Positions 45,564-58,696 of a stretch of DNA of 64,000 nucleotides are shown in pieces. A model generated the notes under the pieces. That model was given only the letters and a program-made list of their open reading frames with translations. It was not told the DNA's origin and searched no databases. Source of the DNA: a virus (lineage: Duplodnaviria; Caudoviricetes); IMG/VR virus record IMGVR_UViG_3300009155_000035; one strand, written 5' to 3'. The number at the start of each line of letters is the position of its first letter. The first letter of the stretch is position 1. The translations under genes were made by a program, and so were the position numbers.

Positions 45564-46552
45564 TTGTACATACTGTTGACGAAGGCTGGGGACTTGATTG
45601 GCCAATCAAACAATTTGAAAAAGAAATTCTGGACCAGTACCTAGCACCAATAAGAAACGACTCCTCAAAAACTGTGTTGATCAACAGTGTGTGGTATACC
45701 ACTGATTTACATCAACAAACATTATCACAACTAAGACACATGGATTTTAATCGAATTGTTCTTGTGTCTACACTAGACTGTTCTATCCCACAGCCGGACT
45801 GGTTTGCAGAATTCAATTGTGAAGTAATTGGAGTTGGGTATTATCCGGGTGAAGGTTACATTGATTTGTGGGCTCTTGTTGTTGACAAATATTTTAATCT
45901 TGAAAAATACACGTTTGGAGATGCATCGGCAATTGACACGGCATACATGTGCTTGAACAGAAAACCCCACCATCACCGACGTCGTTTATATAAACAGTTA
46001 ACAAGTGCAAATCTGCTGGATCAAGGCATAGTAAGTCTAGGTGGCGACGAAAACTATCCTGCACAACGCATATTGACACTTGATGACGGAATGTCATATA
46101 TTGCACCAAACCCCGGCAAAGAACAACACGGCATTGCTAATGACATTGCCAGTCTAGGACACCCAGAAAATTGGCAAAGACACTTTTTAAATGTGGTGAC
46201 TGAAACAGTATGGGATATCAGCAAACTGCATTTTGTCAGTGAAAAAATATTTAAACCCATTGTTGGGGAAAAGCCGTTTATATTGTACGATCCCACCGGC
46301 GGAGACACATGGTTTCGCGACAGAGGATTTGCTACCTTCTATCAAGATTTCGGTGACATAACTGACTTGGACATTGCCAAAGATACAAATCAACCGCTGT
46401 TTTTACAAGCTCTTTGCAAGCAACCAAAAAGTTATTTGAGCTCCAAATACGTTGCATTGCAAGACAAAATCCTGTACAATAAACATAGATTCAGTGAATA
46501 CGTAGCTGAACAAAAGACCAAAATTAAACAAGGAATACAATGCCAAATCTAG
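45560..46552 (+). CDS. Putative glycosyltransferase-like protein (paralog 4)
   Basis: CLNRKP...NVVTET...[14 protein letters not shown]...GFATF. Confidence 0.5.
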
Positions 46553-47133
46553 TACCAATGGTTCTTGAACAAACAAGCAAGGGTGAACGCAGTTACGACA
46601 TCTACAGTCGCTTGCTAAGAGATCGTGTTATTTTGCTTGAAGGTGAAGTGCATGATCAAATGGCAAATTTAGTTGTTGCTCAGTTGTTGTATCTAGAGAG
46701 TGAAGACCCAGACAAAGACATCAGCTTGTATATCAACAGTCCCGGTGGGTCAGTGACAGCTGGAATGGCCATTTACGATGCCATGCAGTTTATCCGTTCT
46801 GATGTGCAAACCATTGTCATGGGACAGGCCTGCTCCATGGGGTCATTGTTGGCACAATCTGGTGCCAGGGGCAAGCGCAGTATTCTACCCAATGCTCGTC
46901 ACATGATTCACCAGCCCTCGGGTGGCGCACGTGGTCAGGCCACTGACATGGAAATTCAAGTACGAGAGATTTTAGCTATGAAGAAGAGTTTAACCCAGAT
47001 CTATGTTGATCACAACAGTGCTGAGAAAACCTTTGACGAACTCAGCCGAGACATGGAACGTGATAACTTTATGACAGCCGAACAGGCTGTGGCTTATGGG
47101 CTAGCCGATAAAGTCATCAATCGACGCAGTTAA
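46540..47133 (+). CDS. clpP: ATP-dependent Clp protease proteolytic subunit
   Basis: [20 protein letters not shown] (Ser), MIHQP (His), RDNFM (Asp). Confidence 0.97.
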
Positions 47134-50718: not shown

Positions 50719-50742
50719 AAAAATGCCCCTTTCGGGGCATTT
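50719..50742. terminator. Bidirectional terminator (ends the pqqA transcript)
   Basis: AAAAATGCCCC-tttc-GGGGCATTT. Confidence 0.85.
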
Positions 50743-50745
50743 ATA

Positions 50746-50817
50746 TTATCGATTTGCGATATACATTGTGATTTCGAAACCGTAGCGCATTTCAGTTGCT
50801 TCTGGCTTTGTCCACAT
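50746..50817 (-). CDS. pqqA: Pyrroloquinoline quinone precursor peptide PqqA (23 aa, not in ORF track)
   Basis: [23 protein letters not shown] with ExxxY core; AAGGAG SD; -10 TATAAT at 50863-50868; terminator downstream. Confidence 0.92.
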
Positions 50818-50909
50818 AGTAGTTCTCCTTTTAACAAATATACTGCATTAGTATGTACCACTATTATACTGGAGAAACTGCCTATTTCACATAGTGAATA
50901 TCATTAATC

Positions 50910-50987
50910 TTATATCGTTTTTCTACGTATCTCTGTTCGGTAATACTGTTTAGCAGTAAGAATAACAGCACCAATAAACGGAAGCAA
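50910..50987 (-). CDS. Candidate riboswitch-controlled small peptide (25 aa, TTG start)
   Basis: MLPFIGAVILTAKQYYRTEIRRKTI after AAAGGA; SD spacing is short; alternative ORF 50882-51016. Confidence 0.3.
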   Translation of the reverse strand: MLPFIGAVILTAKQYYRTEIRRKTI

Positions 50988-51003
50988 TTTTCCTTTAAAA
51001 AGT

Positions 51004-51089
51004 TATGGTCTCGCATCTTTGTCTGTGTGCCGGACTTGCGTCGTGTTGACGGCACACAGAACCCTTTTACAGGTTAGCTACTCCCCATG
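51004..51089 (-). ncRNA. yybP-ykoY (Mn2+-sensing) riboswitch
   Basis: AUGG-GGAGUAGC ... CUGUGUGCC-GUCAACAC-GAC(GCAA)GUC-C-GGCACACAG ... GCGAGA-CCAU matches the known P1/L1/P3/L3 architecture. Confidence 0.88.
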
Positions 51090-51097
51090 AATATTTA

Positions 51098-51616
51098 TTA
51101 GCTATTCAATACCTTGGCAACACTATTCATAACGCTGGCAATACGACCAATGTCACGAAGCTGTTCTACTGTATAGCCTTCCTTCTTGAGTGTTTCGTAA
51201 TGTGCCTTAACACAGAAATGGCACTTGCCAACAATGCTTGCGGCCAAGCTATAGGCTTCAAATCGAGCTTTAGTTGTGCCGCCATGTGACGCAATAGCAT
51301 TCATACGTAACTGAGCGGGTAGTCCTTTTAGAGCAGGGTCGTCTGCCATTTCAACGTAAGGATACCATACGTTGTTTTGAGCCATGATGCTGGCGGCAGT
51401 AAGGGCGGCATCGGCTTCTTTGCGATCTGCAATCTGGCTATGGACCCATGTCCAAAGCTTGCTGTTGCCTGTGGCAAAAGCCGCCGCCAATGCCACAGCT
51501 TCGGCTTCATCCACAGGCAATGCACTGCGTTTGATCACAGCGTCAATATTGAGCTTGGTATCCTTTGCGTATTCGGGAATACTGGATTCTTTTAATGCGT
51601 CTACCCATTGGGTCAT
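51098..51616 (-). CDS. ahpD: Alkyl hydroperoxide reductase AhpD
   Basis: IPEYAKDTKLN, MAQNNVWY, GKCHFCVKAH. Confidence 0.93.
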   Translation of the reverse strand: MTQWVDALKESSIPEYAKDTKLNIDAVIKRSALPVDEAEAVALAAAFATGNSKLWTWVHSQIADRKEADAALTAASIMAQNNVWYPYVEMADDPALKGLPAQLRMNAIASHGGTTKARFEAYSLAASIVGKCHFCVKAHYETLKKEGYTVEQLRDIGRIASVMNSVAKVLNS

Positions 51617-53046
51617 TTTGTTTCTCCTAAAATAATATTGTGTTTTGCAAATTCATCCACCAGCCAGGGAAAAGTTTTTGGCCAGCTGGTTGATCTACGT
51701 CGATCTAACTCGTTAAGGTACAAATACAAGTTGAATATCTCCTTGACGTTTGGATTACTGCTACAAGACTGTTTGGCAATGCCTTCAAGATACTGACGAC
51801 TAGACAAGTCCTCGGGAGTTGATGTTGGCTTCAGTGCCAGGGCTTTTTCAAAATCTTCTTTGAATATAGCACCAAACATATCAATTGACTGATTGTTTCT
51901 TCCTTGCACAGAATTTTGATAGTGATGAACTCTACGAGTTTTATTCCAGTGATTTATTTTATCTATCAATGTTGGCAAAGTTTTTATGGTAAGCGGTGTT
52001 ACTGTGGAACCAATGATCAAATTGATCCAGTGCTGTGATAACAAATATTCAAAATTTCTTTCCCATACTGTTAGGTTCAAGGGAAAGCGAACATACTCTT
52101 GCTCGGGACCCCAACAATCCAAACTGGCAGTTACTTCAAATTCTCTGAGATGGTTGGTGTCGATTAGTTTCTTCACACGTTCGACTATCTTCACAAGATG
52201 TGGTAATCGTGTGTTTAAATTTGTGAATATTTGCAATTTGAGTTCTGGTGCGGGGTGCTGTTCAAATAAATCCAAGCACTGTTCAAACTCGTCTTGGTAT
52301 AACGGCTCACCACCCAGCACGTTAAACACTGTTAGATTATGTACATTTTTTTTCAGCCACTCAAACAACTTGTTTTTATTGTCTTTGAGGTCTGGGCTCT
52401 TCTTAAAGCTCGGCGATAAGAAACTGGTTTCAAGACTTTCATGTACATACAAACCGTGTTTTTTGTTTTCGGCGTCCCACAGGCTTGAATACAATGGACC
52501 ACAATACATGCATTTTAAGTTGCAGGTATTGTCAAAATAAACTTCAAGTATCCTTGGAGTTACATGCACAGCATGCAGATCAATATCCAGCTCAGGTGGT
52601 GCATGCATTCCGGGGAAGTCTAAGTTGGTGATTCGATCACTGGCACCGCCAACAGCTTCAATGTCACGACAGTATTCACATCCGCCGCCAGGCCACTTCC
52701 CTTCAAGCATTTTTGTTCTTGCTTGCATTTTTTCTGGGGTGTTGTGAAAATCAAATGTGTCGGGATCAAACTTGCTGCCAAATGTTCTATGGCAACTTGA
52801 AGTCATGCCAGTGGTTAAAAACAAAGTGCTCCAGTTCCATTTTAGTTGACACGCTGTAGCAGTTTTAATCGGAAAAATTTTATGTGATAGTTTGGATGAC
52901 TTTTTAAACAAGCCCGGGACATAACCAAACCGAGTCTTGCACTCTTGTTGAATAAGTTCGGGTAAAAATCTAAACTGCTCCTCGGACTCACAGTCGGGCC
53001 AGGACTGATCTCGAATCTCTTGATAAAACTCTTTCCAAGAAGACAT
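51613..53046 (-). CDS. Radical SAM protein with N-terminal twitch-like Cys module
   Basis: TACQLKW..SSCH..CEYC; CNLKCMYC; GGEP. Confidence 0.85.
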   Translation of the reverse strand: MSSWKEFYQEIRDQSWPDCESEEQFRFLPELIQQECKTRFGYVPGLFKKSSKLSHKIFPIKTATACQLKWNWSTLFLTTGMTSSCHRTFGSKFDPDTFDFHNTPEKMQARTKMLEGKWPGGGCEYCRDIEAVGGASDRITNLDFPGMHAPPELDIDLHAVHVTPRILEVYFDNTCNLKCMYCGPLYSSLWDAENKKHGLYVHESLETSFLSPSFKKSPDLKDNKNKLFEWLKKNVHNLTVFNVLGGEPLYQDEFEQCLDLFEQHPAPELKLQIFTNLNTRLPHLVKIVERVKKLIDTNHLREFEVTASLDCWGPEQEYVRFPLNLTVWERNFEYLLSQHWINLIIGSTVTPLTIKTLPTLIDKINHWNKTRRVHHYQNSVQGRNNQSIDMFGAIFKEDFEKALALKPTSTPEDLSSRQYLEGIAKQSCSSNPNVKEIFNLYLYLNELDRRRSTSWPKTFPWLVDEFAKHNIILGETK

Positions 53047-53069
53047 TGATTTTTACCCTTTTGATCTAA

Positions 53070-53609
53070 TTAAAGTGTTTCGCCGCCAACTGTACGATTG
53101 CAAGCACACAGTTCACCTGTTTGCAGTGCATCCAATACACGCAGAGTTTCTTCTGGGCTACGACCAACGTTGAGGTTGTTAACAGTAACGTGCTGAATTT
53201 CGTTGTTAGGATCAACAATGAATGTTGCACGAAGTGCGGCACCTGCAGGAGCATAGAGCACACCTAGTTGTTCAATCAAGCTGAGTTCACCGCGCTGTGT
53301 ATCAGCAAACTGGTGATGTGTGATCTTTTGTAGATCGGGGTGTGCTTTTTGCCATGCTACCTTGCAGAACTCGTTGTCTGTGCTACCCGTTAGCAATACT
53401 GCATCACGGTCGGCAAAATCTTGTGCCAACTTGTCATACGCCACAATTTCAGTGGGGCAAACAAATGTAAAATCTTTTGGATAGTAAACAATTACTTTCC
53501 ACTTGCCTTCAAACGAGCGTTCAGTAATGGTGTAAAAAGCATCTTCTGGTTGCCCAGGACGCACGCCAGTGATGGCAAAAGTGGTGAGTTGGTCGCCTAC
53601 AGTTTTCAT
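53070..53609 (-). CDS. ahpC: Peroxiredoxin AhpC
   Basis: YYPKDFTFVCPTEI, RATFIVD, ELCACN. Confidence 0.95.
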   Translation of the reverse strand: MKTVGDQLTTFAITGVRPGQPEDAFYTITERSFEGKWKVIVYYPKDFTFVCPTEIVAYDKLAQDFADRDAVLLTGSTDNEFCKVAWQKAHPDLQKITHHQFADTQRGELSLIEQLGVLYAPAGAALRATFIVDPNNEIQHVTVNNLNVGRSPEETLRVLDALQTGELCACNRTVGGETL

Positions 53610-53662
53610 TTTTGATTTCCTTTAAGTTAAAAATTGATACTCAGTGTTTGTACTGAGGGTTT

Positions 53663-53714
53663 ATTGTACACATATATATCAATGAAATCAAGCAAAATCT
53701 ATGAATTTGCTTGA
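53663..53714 (-). promoter_or_regulatory. ahpC promoter with overlapping inverted repeat
   Basis: TTGATT-17-TACAAT on minus strand; TCAAGCAAA-N9-TTTGCTTGA (53688-53714) overlaps the -35. Confidence 0.6.
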
Positions 53715-53742
53715 AATTATTTTTATGACGATAATAGACAAA

Positions 53743-53768
53743 ATAAAAGGCGCACCGGCGCCTTTTAT
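53743..53768 (-). terminator. Terminator after the porin gene
   Basis: ATAAAAGGCGC-accg-GCGCCTTTTAT. Confidence 0.8.
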
Positions 53769-53786
53769 CATAAGTGCAATCTAATT

Positions 53787-55064
53787 TTAGAATGCTTTGC
53801 GCATGCCAATTGCAAATGCGTCAATGGCTTGTCCCTTGGCAGGAGCACCTGCTGTCATACCAAAGATTGGGCCCATATTGGCGTTACCTTGGTTGTCAGC
53901 ACGACTATACAATGCAAACACTGCAAACGTTTTAGAAAAATTGTATTGACCATACACAGAAGTCAAGTTAACTTTGTTTGCGTCAACTGTTTTGTCCACA
54001 ACTGCTGTGTACTGTGCGGCAACACGAGTTCGATCATTGACTTTATAACTGACACCAAGAGCATTGGCATCAAAATCATTGCCATACGCAGTACCAACTG
54101 GAGCATTGCGTGCGGCAGTGATAATACCGCTAGCAGAAATGCTCATTGGAGTCGTCATGCAGTTACCACCAGATTTGGTTTCACTGCACTGGCCCCATCG
54201 AGCACCAAAGTAACCATACTTGAATGTAAGGTCTTTATATGTGTATGCGGCACCGGCCATTTGGGTTTTTAGCTGGGTAGCACCGGTGTTGTCGTTAACA
54301 TCTTGTACGCCAACTAGTGCTGAGAATGGACCTTTTTCATATTCGACCACAACGTTGCGTTGACCTTGTTGTTCGAATTCGTTGCTGGCAGTTGGACCAT
54401 TCTGGTTCATTCCCCACATGGCATGAACAGTGACACCGTTGTAAGTTGGTGACTTCCAGCCAATACCGTTGCTGTAGTTGTTGGGACCACCGTTGATACC
54501 GGACACATTCAAGTCTGGATTAAGTGGAGCAACTACACCACTCAACATACGATTACCGGATGAACCGTGTCCGGTCAATGTACCGTTGACTGCACCAATA
54601 CCACCAGAGGCAATACCAAGCGCATCCAAACGTGTGGACATGTAAAATTGTGGAGTCAATTGACGTCCAAGTGTAAAGTTACCAACTGTTGGTGTGATTA
54701 TTTCCAAGTTGGCTTTGCGATAAAACAACGAGGTAGAACCACCCGAAATAGCATAACCATTACCAGGGTTGGTACCACCAACACCGCTTAACGACGAGCT
54801 AACATTACCACTGTTGGTATTAACTGCGGTTTCCAAGTTAACTGATGCTTTGTACCCACCAGCAATGTCGTGTGTTCCACGGAAGCCCAATGAGCTGTTG
54901 CCTAAAACAGAACTGGACATATTAAATGCGTTGAGTCCCGGGGCATTGTGTGCAACACCGGCAATATTCAAATTGCCATAAATTTGAAGTGGTGCTTCTT
55001 GCGACTGCGCCTGCGCAGTAGAGAACCCCGCGGCAATAAGCAGAGGTAGAAGTAGTTTTTTCAT
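53787..55064 (-). CDS. Gram-negative outer-membrane porin
   Basis: Signal peptide, LQIYG, SSLGFRGTHDI, LGRQ, C-terminal GMRKAF. Confidence 0.88.
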   Translation of the reverse strand: MKKLLLPLLIAAGFSTAQAQSQEAPLQIYGNLNIAGVAHNAPGLNAFNMSSSVLGNSSLGFRGTHDIAGGYKASVNLETAVNTNSGNVSSSLSGVGGTNPGNGYAISGGSTSLFYRKANLEIITPTVGNFTLGRQLTPQFYMSTRLDALGIASGGIGAVNGTLTGHGSSGNRMLSGVVAPLNPDLNVSGINGGPNNYSNGIGWKSPTYNGVTVHAMWGMNQNGPTASNEFEQQGQRNVVVEYEKGPFSALVGVQDVNDNTGATQLKTQMAGAAYTYKDLTFKYGYFGARWGQCSETKSGGNCMTTPMSISASGIITAARNAPVGTAYGNDFDANALGVSYKVNDRTRVAAQYTAVVDKTVDANKVNLTSVYGQYNFSKTFAVFALYSRADNQGNANMGPIFGMTAGAPAKGQAIDAFAIGMRKAF

Positions 55065-55595: not shown

Positions 55596-55622
55596 AAAAA
55601 GCCACCGCCCCGGTGGCTTTTT
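55596..55622. terminator. Terminator
   Basis: AAAAAGCCACCG-ccc-CGGTGGCTTTTT. Confidence 0.85.
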
Positions 55623-55636
55623 CTTTAAATAGTGCA

Positions 55637-56542
55637 ATGAATATTACAGGATTTCACATAGAGCCCACTAACATGTGTACACTTAAATGTGCTGGGTGTG
55701 CTCGCACCAGATTTATCGATCAATGGCCACAGCACTGGCGCAATCAAAATTTGAGTATCACCGCCCTGACGCAATTCCTTGATATCGATATAACAGGGTT
55801 GTCAGTAGATTTTTGTGGTGATTATGGTGATCCTATCTATCATCCTGAATTTATTGAGATGGTCAGGGCAGTCAAGCAACGCGGGGCACGAGTTACCATT
55901 ACTACCAATGGCAGTTATCACAAAGCTGATTGGTGGCAGGAGTTATGTAATCACCTAGATGGTGTTGACATCATCAGATTTAGCATAGACGGTCTTCCCG
56001 ATAACTTTACTCAGTATCGTAAAAATGCCGACTGGGAATCAATTAAAGTGGGAATTGATGTGTGCAGAAAAAATACAGTTCAACTGGTCTGGAAATTTAT
56101 TCCGTTTGCCTACAACTATTGTCAAATTGATCAAGCACAACAGTTGGCTACTAATTTAGGCATGCAATTTGCTCTGGACGCCAGCGATAGGTTTGATGCA
56201 GTTACTATGCACTACCGGCCACCTGCTGAGTTCTTGCGCAGTAGGTCACATGTGCAGGAACAAGTTAAACAAGGAATCCAACACACAGTAACACCCAAGT
56301 GTAGTAATGGCAGGATGCACTACATTTCGGCAAGTGGGCATTATGTTTCATGTTGCTATCTAGCCGATCATAGATTTTACTACAAAACTGATTTTGGAAA
56401 GAACAAGCAGTCTTATCAAATTGATCAAACCACTCTTACCCAACTAATCAATCAATCAAGGATGGTCGAATTTTATCAAAGCATTGATACAAGTCCACAT
56501 ATTGCATGCCAATTTAACTGCCCAACCACAAAAACATCTTGA
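55637..56542 (+). CDS. Radical SAM protein
   Basis: CTLKCAGC, CGDYGDP, SCC...CQFNC; start reassigned 5 nt after TAAATA. Confidence 0.85.
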   Translation: MNITGFHIEPTNMCTLKCAGCARTRFIDQWPQHWRNQNLSITALTQFLDIDITGLSVDFCGDYGDPIYHPEFIEMVRAVKQRGARVTITTNGSYHKADWWQELCNHLDGVDIIRFSIDGLPDNFTQYRKNADWESIKVGIDVCRKNTVQLVWKFIPFAYNYCQIDQAQQLATNLGMQFALDASDRFDAVTMHYRPPAEFLRSRSHVQEQVKQGIQHTVTPKCSNGRMHYISASGHYVSCCYLADHRFYYKTDFGKNKQSYQIDQTTLTQLINQSRMVEFYQSIDTSPHIACQFNCPTTKTS

Positions 56543-58129: not shown

Positions 58130-58696
58130 ATGGAAAAATATATTAAACTATCACTGCATACTGTGGTGTTTTTAATAATTGCCACTTTCGGCATAACGCT
58201 GATTAATGCAGTAACCCAAAACAAACTAAGCCGTTTGGCAGATGCCGACATCAGTTCAGTATCTACAATTGGCGAATTCAAGGCTGCGCTCAAAGACAAA
58301 GAGCGCCGATTGCAATGCATGACCCAAAACATATATTGGGAAGCTGCCAGTGAGCCTGCCGAAGGCAAGCTAGCAGTGGCACAGATTGTAATGAACCGGG
58401 TGGAGAGTGGAAAATTTCCCGATGACCCATGCCAAGTTGTACACCAAAAGAATGTGGTGTATCAACGAGTGCTGTGCCAATTTTCATGGTATTGTGAGCA
58501 AACTTTCAAGACTCGACCTATTCATAAGAACCTTTGGCTTGAAAGTGAAGAAGCCGCAAAGATGGTGATGTTTGATGGGTTCAGGATTCCTGAACTCAAA
58601 GATGCACTGTACTATCATGCTGACTATGTTAACCCACAATGGAACAAACGCCGTGTGGCCAAAATTGGTCGTCACATTTTTTATAAGGACCTGTAA
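58130..58696 (+). CDS. Cell wall hydrolase (SleB/Hydrolase_2)
   Basis: CMTQNIYWEA, VMNRV, FPDDPCQVV, CQFSW, YYHA, IGRHIFY. Confidence 0.92.
   Translation: MEKYIKLSLHTVVFLIIATFGITLINAVTQNKLSRLADADISSVSTIGEFKAALKDKERRLQCMTQNIYWEAASEPAEGKLAVAQIVMNRVESGKFPDDPCQVVHQKNVVYQRVLCQFSWYCEQTFKTRPIHKNLWLESEEAAKMVMFDGFRIPELKDALYYHADYVNPQWNKRRVAKIGRHIFYKDL

Follow-up and report, generated by a model that had tools for sequence, protein, structure and literature searches.

A probable mosaic locus in a freshwater jumbo phage with a P4-less relative of the yybP-ykoY riboswitch and a deleted terC gene

The locus at positions 50719-53714 of the phage DNA analysed here is probably an island of auxiliary genes of host origin, a mosaic of four units that each have their own history, and not an operon gated by Mn2+. 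These units would be an ahpC-ahpD pair, a viral radical SAM gene, a Mn2+ riboswitch and a pqqA cassette. The riboswitch RNA belongs to the yybP-ykoY family and lacks helix P4, and the terC gene that it once preceded has been deleted down to its last codons. The whole stretch analysed (the window: 64,000 nucleotides of IMG/VR record IMGVR_UViG_3300009155_000035) also encodes ribonucleotide reductase, DNA ligase and tail genes and belongs to a contig of up to 242 kb. A megablast search with 24 kb of it gave no match among cultured phages. Its source is a jumbo freshwater phage, for which we infer a betaproteobacterial methylotroph as the probable host.

An earlier note on this DNA had described the locus as a new module in which the sensing of metal is tied to the provision of antioxidants and a cofactor, between one operator-bearing promoter and one terminator. 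Every element that it named was found on the minus strand, at or near the place given, and profile scores bear out the identities of ahpC, the radical SAM gene, ahpD and pqqA. In the order of transcription, the features are:

53663-53691, minus strand: sigma-70-like candidate promoter of ahpC (TTGATT, 17-nt spacer, TACAAT; consensus scan)
53640-53657, minus strand: inverted repeat CTCAGT...ACTGAG in the ahpC leader (sequence scan)
53070-53609, minus strand: AhpC-type 2-Cys peroxiredoxin of the mycobacterial kind (PF00578, 76 bits)
51613-53046, minus strand: radical SAM protein with twitch domain (NF033640, 216.6 bits against a cut-off of 170)
51098-51616, minus strand: AhpD-type alkylhydroperoxidase (PF02627, TIGR00778)
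51002-51091, minus strand: yybP-ykoY (Mn2+) riboswitch aptamer, three-way-junction variant (covariance model R1)
50910-50987, minus strand: terC relic, a small ORF of 25 codons (identity to phage TerC C-termini)
50863-50907, minus strand: candidate pqqA promoter region, with the conserved box TTAATGATATTCACTAT (50891-50907) and GTGAAA / TATAAT (50863-50890; scan)
50746-50817, minus strand: pqqA, 23-aa PQQ precursor peptide (TIGR02107, 38.2 against 20; PF08042, 35 against 21.1)
50721-50742, minus strand: intrinsic terminator with a 9-bp stem and U tract (scan)

Structure and family of the riboswitch RNA

The assignment of the RNA to the Mn riboswitches made in the earlier note was confirmed by an independent covariance model, which identifies it as a relative of yybP-ykoY. 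This model (R1), built solely from two bacterial examples (L132 and L125) with the window left out, matches the window over model positions 1-89 of 89 with 82.3 bits (E 1.9e-22), its sole match in the 64 kb. P1.1, L1, P1.2, P2, P3.1, L3 (UCAACAC) and P3.2 are all present, and 24 of the 26 R1 pairs are standard. The L1 motifs are exact (GGGGAGUAG ... GAGACC) and closed by P1.1, in which AUGG pairs with CCAU. L3 is flanked by a P3.1 of 10 bp and a P3.2 of 3 bp capped by a GNRA loop, and the GUCAACA motif was found in L3. P4 is replaced by a 7-nt linker, ACAAAGA. Furthermore, 36 metagenome members, in an alignment that was fitted to R1 and so favours the structure, are 96% paired, with changes on both sides at 20 of the 26 pairs. 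Covariation scores 0.83 for this pairing and no more than 0.12 once the partners are slid. The structure was written by hand on the two-sequence alignment, MAFFT with RNAalifold having recovered only P1 in 16 variants.

The Rfam 15 model RF00080 gave no match, at the gathering score or at E<=10, on the window or on 116 nt of it alone, and sister sequences score 19-34 bits for a gathering score of 45. We had considered this null result as evidence against a Mn riboswitch and dropped it, since P4 alone is missing relative to the RF00080 consensus. Like the RF00080 aptamers of L. lactis, X. oryzae and E. coli mntP, the window RNA has L1, P1.1, P1.2, P2, P3.1 with an asymmetric L3, and P3.2. Its relatives also precede TerC and other cation-stress genes: the bacterial members examined lie upstream of TerC, M48 peptidase, OEP or Na_Ca_ex (CaCA) genes. 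Unlike RF00080 members, it forms a three-way and not a four-way junction, is phage-borne, and lies directly behind the ahpD stop codon with no obvious promoter of its own and with its cargo deleted.

Among Mn riboswitches, a natural three-way junction has already been described for the E. coli alx element, a Mn/pH switch that exerts translational control on a TerC-family exporter (PMC12153347). The alx element lacks P2, with reports confined to Enterobacteriales (PMC12153347), whereas the window RNA has P2 and lacks P4. The alx riboswitch is the sole published three-way form that we found. R1 had no match in 89 related phage loci or in a sample of 151 genomes from the order of a Burkholderiales genome, and Rfam revealed no Mn riboswitch in seven terC-carrying phage loci. 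Moreover, no title or abstract in the searchable literature reported a yybP-ykoY element carried by a phage. Judging from the sequence, both a phage-borne Mn riboswitch and the P4-less architecture appear to be novel here. A bolder proposal would treat the P4-less RNA as a distinct, unannotated Mn-riboswitch subclass, intercistronic in jumbo phages of freshwater methylotrophs within a co-selected island of periplasmic redox and metal genes (AhpC/AhpD, TerC, PqqA), and still tuning the stub or read-through into pqqA by Mn2+ after the loss of terC; we regard this as unlikely.

The ahpC-ahpD pair and the radical SAM gene

The first gene of the locus, ahpC, encodes a protein with the AhpC-TSA fold, the peroxidatic cysteine in FVCPTE and a C-terminal resolving cysteine (CxC). 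Its best solved relative is AhpC of M. tuberculosis (2BMX, 152 bits), which aligns over the full length, including CxC. The enterobacterial, AhpF-dependent AhpC type (TIGR03137) was rejected, the score being 110 bits against a cut-off of 272. AhpD is likewise closest, among solved structures, to its M. tuberculosis counterpart (1GU9): the CxxC...H residues align and the CMD fold was found. It scores 30.3 with TIGR00778 (cut-off 27.8) and falls below the cut-off of the TIGR00777 subfamily (110.6 against 192). By analogy with the lipoyl-dependent peroxidase of M. tuberculosis (2BMX, 1GU9/1KNC), whose active-site motifs are present and whose genes also lie in one operon, AhpC would reduce peroxides and AhpD, through CxxC, would re-reduce AhpC via host lipoyl proteins. 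Unlike the mycobacterial system, the pair is phage-encoded, has extra genes between ahpC and ahpD and scores under the NCBIfam equivalog cut-offs.

The candidate promoter of ahpC follows the terminator of an upstream porin gene (53742-53769). As for the operator that the earlier note attached to it, the sigma-70-like site is present at 53663-53691 and the operator could be the inverted repeat at 53640-53657, which from its sequence might also be an attenuator hairpin. The promoter region is kept in L005, L015 and L013. The first two also retain the repeat, whose position in L013 is taken by another hairpin.

The pair itself is widespread in phages, and ahpC lies upstream in 76 of 80 IMG/VR ahpD loci. 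At least 590 matches to AhpD were found in IMG/VR. The window AhpC is 86-94% identical to those of related phage contigs, and AhpD is 88-95% identical to metagenome relatives, the examined contigs of which look phage-like. Identity of AhpD is at most 72% to bacterial genome assemblies and about 50-59% to the Burkholderiales AhpD proteins of a bacterial genome scan, and a search for an exact match to the protein returned none. The slot between ahpC and ahpD is variable: in the 80 loci it holds nothing (27), a GDSL-like gene (33), TerC (6) or other or unknown genes (11), and a radical SAM gene in none.

In the window, this slot is occupied by a radical SAM gene that matches NF033640 over its full length, with the CxxxCxxC motif as CNLKCMYC in the translation, and whose stop codon overlaps the ahpD start (ATGA). 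Its homologue clusters (2717 homologues) are 88-100% viral, indicating that the family is almost confined to viruses. To our knowledge, no member of the NF033640 family has a known function. No sequence relative was found in the PDB, and the predicted model, although confident (mean pLDDT 84), matched only generic radical SAM cores (TM 0.3-0.5). An exact-protein look-up returned only one 2-kb contig.

The placement between ahpC and ahpD is clade-specific. It is found only in close relatives (L005/6, L015-17, L277/8). The gene stands alone in L001-4 and L007-9, and in the jumbo phage UViG_3300032116_000004 it lies at 118-131 kb, ~90 kb from ahpCD at 209-223 kb. Moreover, in one contig of the source sample ahpC and ahpD are linked without it. 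The radical SAM gene would thus have entered the variable slot in the clade of the window only, and by this insertion it would be co-transcribed and translationally coupled to ahpD.

It could also be tied functionally to its neighbours, either because AhpC and AhpD protect or service its Fe-S clusters or because it acts on PqqA in a PqqE-like manner. The tight packing with the overlap at ahpD would fit such a tie, as would the occurrence of the same gene arrangement in two sub-lineages whose radical SAM proteins are just 64% identical, and the presence of other radical SAM genes near ahpC in some relatives. However, any radical SAM-like gene lies within 7 kb in only 11 of the 80 IMG/VR loci, the family is mostly found alone and without pqqA nearby, one genome separates it widely from ahpCD, and the same slot accommodates GDSL-like and TerC genes. 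We therefore find a functional tie quite unlikely and retain a clade-specific insertion. The PqqE-like role in particular was rejected on the predicted fold, that of generic radical SAM cores, with PqqE outside the top 50 structure matches.

The pqqA cassette and the transcription of the locus

The last gene of the locus, pqqA, carries the conserved E-x3-Y motif as EITMY. The promoter-like site before it (50863-50890), which the earlier note did not list, agrees with the consensus at 10 of 12 positions, more than any other site in the region, and is followed by a conserved leader hairpin and a ribosome-binding site. This promoter-leader architecture is kept in most of 12 related loci compared, and related phages carry the cassette at several different positions. 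Its terminator is common to a convergent SWIM-finger gene on the other side of pqqA. No ORF of at least 90 aa lies between pqqA and ahpD.

Homologues of pqqA were found in all cultured Methylophilales phages and are unannotated in most of those records. Viral pqqA is a published auxiliary metabolic gene of Lake Baikal viruses of methylotrophs (PMC7678222), and the module of the earlier note cannot in this respect be called previously undescribed. As in the Lake Baikal and Methylophilales phages, the window gene is stand-alone and encodes 23 aa with E-x3-Y; new relative to published viral pqqA are its conserved arrangement as a cassette with promoter, leader and terminator and the repeated arrival of this cassette beside ahpD. 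Phage pqqA would feed a consumable precursor peptide into the PQQ pathway of the host, supporting PQQ-dependent alcohol/methanol dehydrogenases, and this role in host PQQ supply has already been proposed in the literature.

These data bear on whether ahpC to pqqA form a single co-regulated operon, in which the Mn riboswitch would link metal status to antioxidant and PQQ-precursor supply. All genes share one strand, no strong terminator lies between ahpC and pqqA, including behind ahpD, and the one strong terminator follows pqqA; hence, transcripts begun at the ahpC promoter could read through the riboswitch into pqqA. The aptamer is intact, and one contig of an RNA library covers the ahpD stop codon, the riboswitch and the stub of terC. 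Moreover, ahpCD, terC and pqqA recur in proximity in related phages, terC in 8 and pqqA in 13 of the 80 IMG/VR ahpD loci.

Against this, the riboswitch cannot gate ahpC, the radical SAM gene or ahpD, because it is located downstream of all three, and its natural cargo is terC, now deleted. The idea of one promoter also fits poorly with pqqA, which has its own conserved candidate promoter, a better match than that of ahpC, as well as its own leader and ribosome-binding site, and which in none of 13 other phage loci is accompanied by a riboswitch. The conserved synteny does not extend to the riboswitch (0 of 89 related loci) or to the radical SAM gene (between ahpC and ahpD in 0 of 80), and in the sister contigs L015-17 and L277/8 a terminator stands immediately behind ahpD. 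A single operon is therefore very unlikely, and the single module, with its terC cargo deleted, its pqqA apparently self-promoted and its radical SAM gene inserted in one clade, is not upheld. An integrated circuit of Mn, redox and PQQ would be striking if true, but the evidence does not support it.

The terC relic and the fate of the riboswitch

The small ORF listed in the earlier note is present and is a fragment of a terC gene, which that note had overlooked. A tblastn search over the whole window detected it (E 1e-4), and its last 21-24 residues are 76-81% identical to phage TerC C-termini (E 3e-9 to 5e-9). It consists of the last ~24 codons of terC and the stop codon, joined to the ribosome-binding site of the riboswitch (AAAGGAAAA). 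About 195 codons, from the start codon to about codon 196, have been deleted. The full TerC membrane domain is absent from the ORF and no other TerC-like sequence was found in the window, so that the 24-codon stub is all that lies downstream of the riboswitch.

A relative with an intact terC start, known from one 178-nt contig of low depth (X4, from a metatranscriptomic RNA library), is identical to window positions 50986-51108 (123 nt, 100%) and continues with MEILSLQFLW, a TerC-like N-terminus. Because the identical riboswitch precedes an intact terC start in X4, the deletion is recent. Contigs from X1 and X3 cross the deleted junction without mismatch, placing the deleted form in two samples; the combination of riboswitch and stub was absent from the other contigs searched, including the 89 related phage loci. 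The aptamer bears no sign of decay, but the deletion is too recent for this to be a sign of selection. The RNA-library contig that spans the element could mean that it is transcribed and still used, with DNA carry-over as an alternative source.

In the relatives, the riboswitch sits between ahpD and terC, where it would probably gate the translation of terC as Mn rises. In the window phage, a recent deletion would have taken terC and left the aptamer with the 25-codon stub. Since only this stub is left under its control, the riboswitch is most likely vestigial. That it was instead kept for a new function after the loss of terC, controlling the 25-aa stub peptide or polarity into pqqA, is highly improbable: the stub frame stays open downstream of the original ribosome-binding site and may start at UUG, the peptide is hydrophobic and basic, the aptamer is perfect and the deleted form occurs in two samples, but the riboswitch does not differ over 123 nt from that of the terC-bearing relative, the stub is just the final transmembrane segment of TerC with the tail behind it, and searches of other contigs did not return the form.

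The locus has several implications. The P4-less form, with strong covariation yet under the Rfam threshold, reveals an annotation gap and offers a natural test case for the part of the four-way junction in Mn sensing. In practical terms, pqqA has been overlooked in the annotation of most cultured Methylophilales phages. Furthermore, the ahpC-ahpD slot, which accepts TerC, GDSL-like or radical SAM genes, is a recombination hot spot, and the identical riboswitch, with its cargo present or absent depending on the sample, captures gene turnover in progress. The repeated co-localisation of ahpCD, terC and pqqA may reflect selection for a common physiological theme in these phages.

The redox island and its phage setting

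The earlier note had viewed ahpC, a radical SAM gene, ahpD, a Mn riboswitch, a small ORF and pqqA as one module coupling metal sensing to antioxidant and cofactor supply. All of these elements exist: AhpC, the radical SAM protein (rSAM), AhpD and PqqA were recovered by profile or structure-relative matches, and the promoter and terminator by scans.

Features of the island and its surroundings
46540-47133 and 58130-58696, (+): ClpP protease and cell-wall hydrolase
50721-50742, (-): terminator after pqqA (scan)
50746-50817, (-): PqqA (TIGR02107, 38.2 bits vs a cut-off of 20; PF08042)
50891-50907, (-): conserved box TTAATGAT-TTCA-TAT, ~20-30 nt upstream of the pqqA -10 element, with matching sites in L254, L265, L279 and other comparison loci
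51002-51091, (-): predicted Mn riboswitch aptamer
51098-51616, (-): AhpD (top solved relative M. tuberculosis AhpD 1GU9, 78 bits; CxxC...H aligns)
51613-53046, (-): rSAM (NCBIfam NF033640, 216.6 bits vs a cut-off of 170)
53070-53609, (-): AhpC/TSA peroxiredoxin (top solved relative M. tuberculosis AhpC 2BMX, 152 bits)
53663-53691, (-): promoter-like site of ahpC (promoter scan)
53787-55064, (-): Gram-negative porin (PF13609, 101 bits), directly upstream of ahpC
55613-56542, (+): second radical SAM gene past the porin gene, opposite strand (PF04055, 46 bits)

The window belongs to a large phage genome: it encodes a ribonucleotide reductase, an ATP-dependent DNA ligase and tail-like genes, and the exact rSAM protein is encoded on a contig up to 242 kb long. 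Megablast of 24 kb of the window against cultured phages found no close cultured relative. The order TylF-like methyltransferase, cell-wall hydrolase, porin, ahpC, rSAM, ahpD is also that of metagenome contigs L015 and L016. These two carry a different porin, of 308 aa, at the equivalent position; weak porin-like matches were also obtained in L216, L259 and L266. In related phage contigs, tmRNA genes of betaproteobacterial or permuted type lie near ahpCD (L198 609-971, L218 2588-3013, L239 6116-6526, L244 3069-3557) and hint at the host group.

A putative Mn riboswitch lacking P4 and its lost cargo

Rfam 15 gave no match on the riboswitch region, nor did a search of 116 nt at E<=10. The RNA nevertheless has the motifs AUGG-GGAGUAGC, GUCAACA and GCGAGA-CCAU in the correct order. 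Compared with the RF00080 consensus, as revealed by a genuine match in viral contig L109 (51 bits), all parts match but the last long hairpin, P4, in place of which stands a 7-nt linker, ACAAAGA. In a pattern scan of metagenome contigs limited to short spacings (85 loci), the same layout was seen in three AT-rich loci, L132, L125 and L171, the first two also having the ACAAAGA linker. A covariance model, R1, was built from a three-way-junction structure hand-written on the two-sequence alignment of L132 and L125, the window being left out. In the 64 kb window, R1 has a single, full-length match (82.3 bits, E 1.9e-22), which upholds the riboswitch call of the earlier note. Under R1, 24 of the 26 pairs of the window aptamer are standard, and compensatory changes relative to L132 are found in P3.1 and P3.2. 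Furthermore, R1 gathers 36 metagenome members, in which pairing holds in 96% of cells and both sides vary in 20 of 26 pairs; their covariation score is 0.83 vs <=0.12 with slid partners, in an alignment that is model-fitted and so favours the structure.

Rfam gives the sister RNAs only 19-34 bits vs a gathering score of 45. The release-15 Manganese model apparently ends at P4, leaving P1 unpaired and the 3' GAGACC strand out; P4 is therefore forced onto downstream sequence in members that lack it. The genes behind the sister RNAs encode TerC (three cases), an M48 peptidase, outer-membrane efflux proteins and a Na/Ca exchanger, as is typical of a Mn/cation regulon. Among published RNAs, the sole three-way-junction form that we found, E. 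coli alx (PMC12153347), lacks P2, whereas the window RNA lacks P4. The window RNA is therefore a true relative of the Mn riboswitch, yet a structural variant, predicted to bind Mn. No R1 match was found in 89 related phage loci (951 kb), and Rfam detects no Mn riboswitch in terC-bearing phage loci.

The small ORF behind the aptamer is a stub of terC, which replaces an alternative reading as a Mn-regulated small protein. Downstream of its aptamer, L132 has TTTAAAGGAAAATAATG and a 231-aa TerC, while the window retains TTTAAAGGAAAAT ahead of 25 codons. These encode a peptide that shares 76-81% identity with the final 21 residues of phage TerC proteins such as those of L208 and L225 (blastp-short E 3e-9 to 5e-9). 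With tblastn, the TerC tail is matched in the entire window at E 1e-4, and no further TerC-like sequence was found there. A 178-nt contig from RNA library X4 equals window 50986-51108 except that a poly-A tract is longer by one A, a stretch spanning the end of ahpD and the entire aptamer. Past the junction it continues with ATGGAAATT..., which translates to MEILSLQFLW, similar to the N-terminus of L132 TerC (MELFTLQALW). Hence, a relative exists in which ahpD, riboswitch and terC are still together. Contigs from another RNA library (X3, 151 nt) and from the source DNA sample (X1, 299 nt) cross the deleted junction with 0 mismatches. Therefore, the loss of terC is genuine and happened very recently, and the intact aptamer is uninformative on any new function.

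The variable slots around ahpD

The window AhpC has the FVCPTE peroxidatic motif and a C-terminal CxC, and scores far under the cut-off of the enterobacterial AhpC equivalog. The ahpC unit is preceded by the porin gene's own terminator; its promoter and the inverted repeat that follows are kept in three related contigs. Viral contigs are rich in AhpD homologues with 73-95% identity, with at least 590 matches in IMG/VR and thousands among metagenome proteins. In bacterial genome assemblies, the top identity is <=72%, on two MAG contigs of 6.6 and 23 kb, and AhpD of recovered Burkholderiales genomes is about 50-59% identical to that of the window.

The slot between ahpC and ahpD is an insertion hot spot. 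Among 80 IMG/VR ahpD loci, ahpC lies upstream of ahpD in 76; the slot is empty in 27 and holds a GDSL-like gene of 131-137 aa in 33, TerC in six (one with the GDSL-like gene too) and other or unknown genes in 11. Across L196-L275 and the window clade, it contains nothing, the GDSL-like gene, TerC, a 55-aa ORF or rSAM, between AhpC and AhpD that are still 68-95% identical. Downstream of ahpD, TerC is found in two of the 80 loci, and pqqA on the same strand ~100-205 nt away in six and 1.9-5.4 kb away in seven. The source sample (X1) also contains related strains: in one, ahpD is joined to ahpC without rSAM (51244/53320), and in another, ahpD runs nearly straight into the ribosome-binding-site region of pqqA (50831/51097); both slots thus vary within the population. 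A 58-61-aa membrane protein (MTETHKRTI...) often follows ahpD (L013 8582-8758, L010 6556-6741), itself followed in some loci by TerC or a second, distant peroxiredoxin-like gene. It has no match in a Pfam scan; a weak precomputed match to PF09834 DUF2061 concerns only another ORF of L013.

The radical SAM gene is a lineage-specific insert. It lies between ahpC and ahpD only in close relatives of the window, L005/6 (86% identity), L015-17 (64%) and L277/8, and a terminator immediately follows ahpD in the latter two groups. Outside this clade, the family (2717 homologues, in clusters 88-100% viral) stands alone; on a 316-kb contig, ~90 kb separate rSAM from ahpCD. The predicted fold (mean pLDDT 84) matches generic radical SAM cores only, PqqE being absent from the top 50 matches.

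The pqqA cassette and the island as a whole

Viral pqqA is already known from Lake Baikal viruses of methylotrophs (PMC7678222). By tblastn, all cultured Methylophilales phages of the collection have it, mostly unannotated: the 23-aa pqqA was seen in OP830906/7, MT375522, MW452941 and KX815270, and is called hypothetical in the records of the Melnitz phages. In the window, pqqA is immediately preceded by the top promoter-like site of the region (GTGAAA, 16 nt spacer, TATAAT; 10/12 matches). Most of 12 other phage loci have upstream of pqqA a TTAATGAT-TTCA box, a TATAAT-type -10 element, a ATACATACT...AGTATGT leader hairpin and an AAGGAGA ribosome-binding site, with a terminator after the gene; in L235, the box is missing. 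This layout is the same beside ahpD and amid tRNA genes; pqqA forms a self-contained cassette. The box, which in the window begins three bases past the stop codon of the terC stub, might bind a host regulator that acts on pqqA.

An integrated module is not supported, since the riboswitch lies 3' of ahpC, rSAM and ahpD, which are out of its reach, its cargo is lost, pqqA has its own predicted promoter and rSAM was inserted in one lineage. rSAM occupies the slot in 0/80 IMG/VR loci, and the exact combination of elements was found in the window phage only. The region is instead best read as an auxiliary-gene island with a common redox/metal theme, which arose through repeated insertions into a hot spot. 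What is modestly new is a predicted Mn riboswitch on a phage, its P4-less form missed by Rfam, and the loss of its cargo seen under way.
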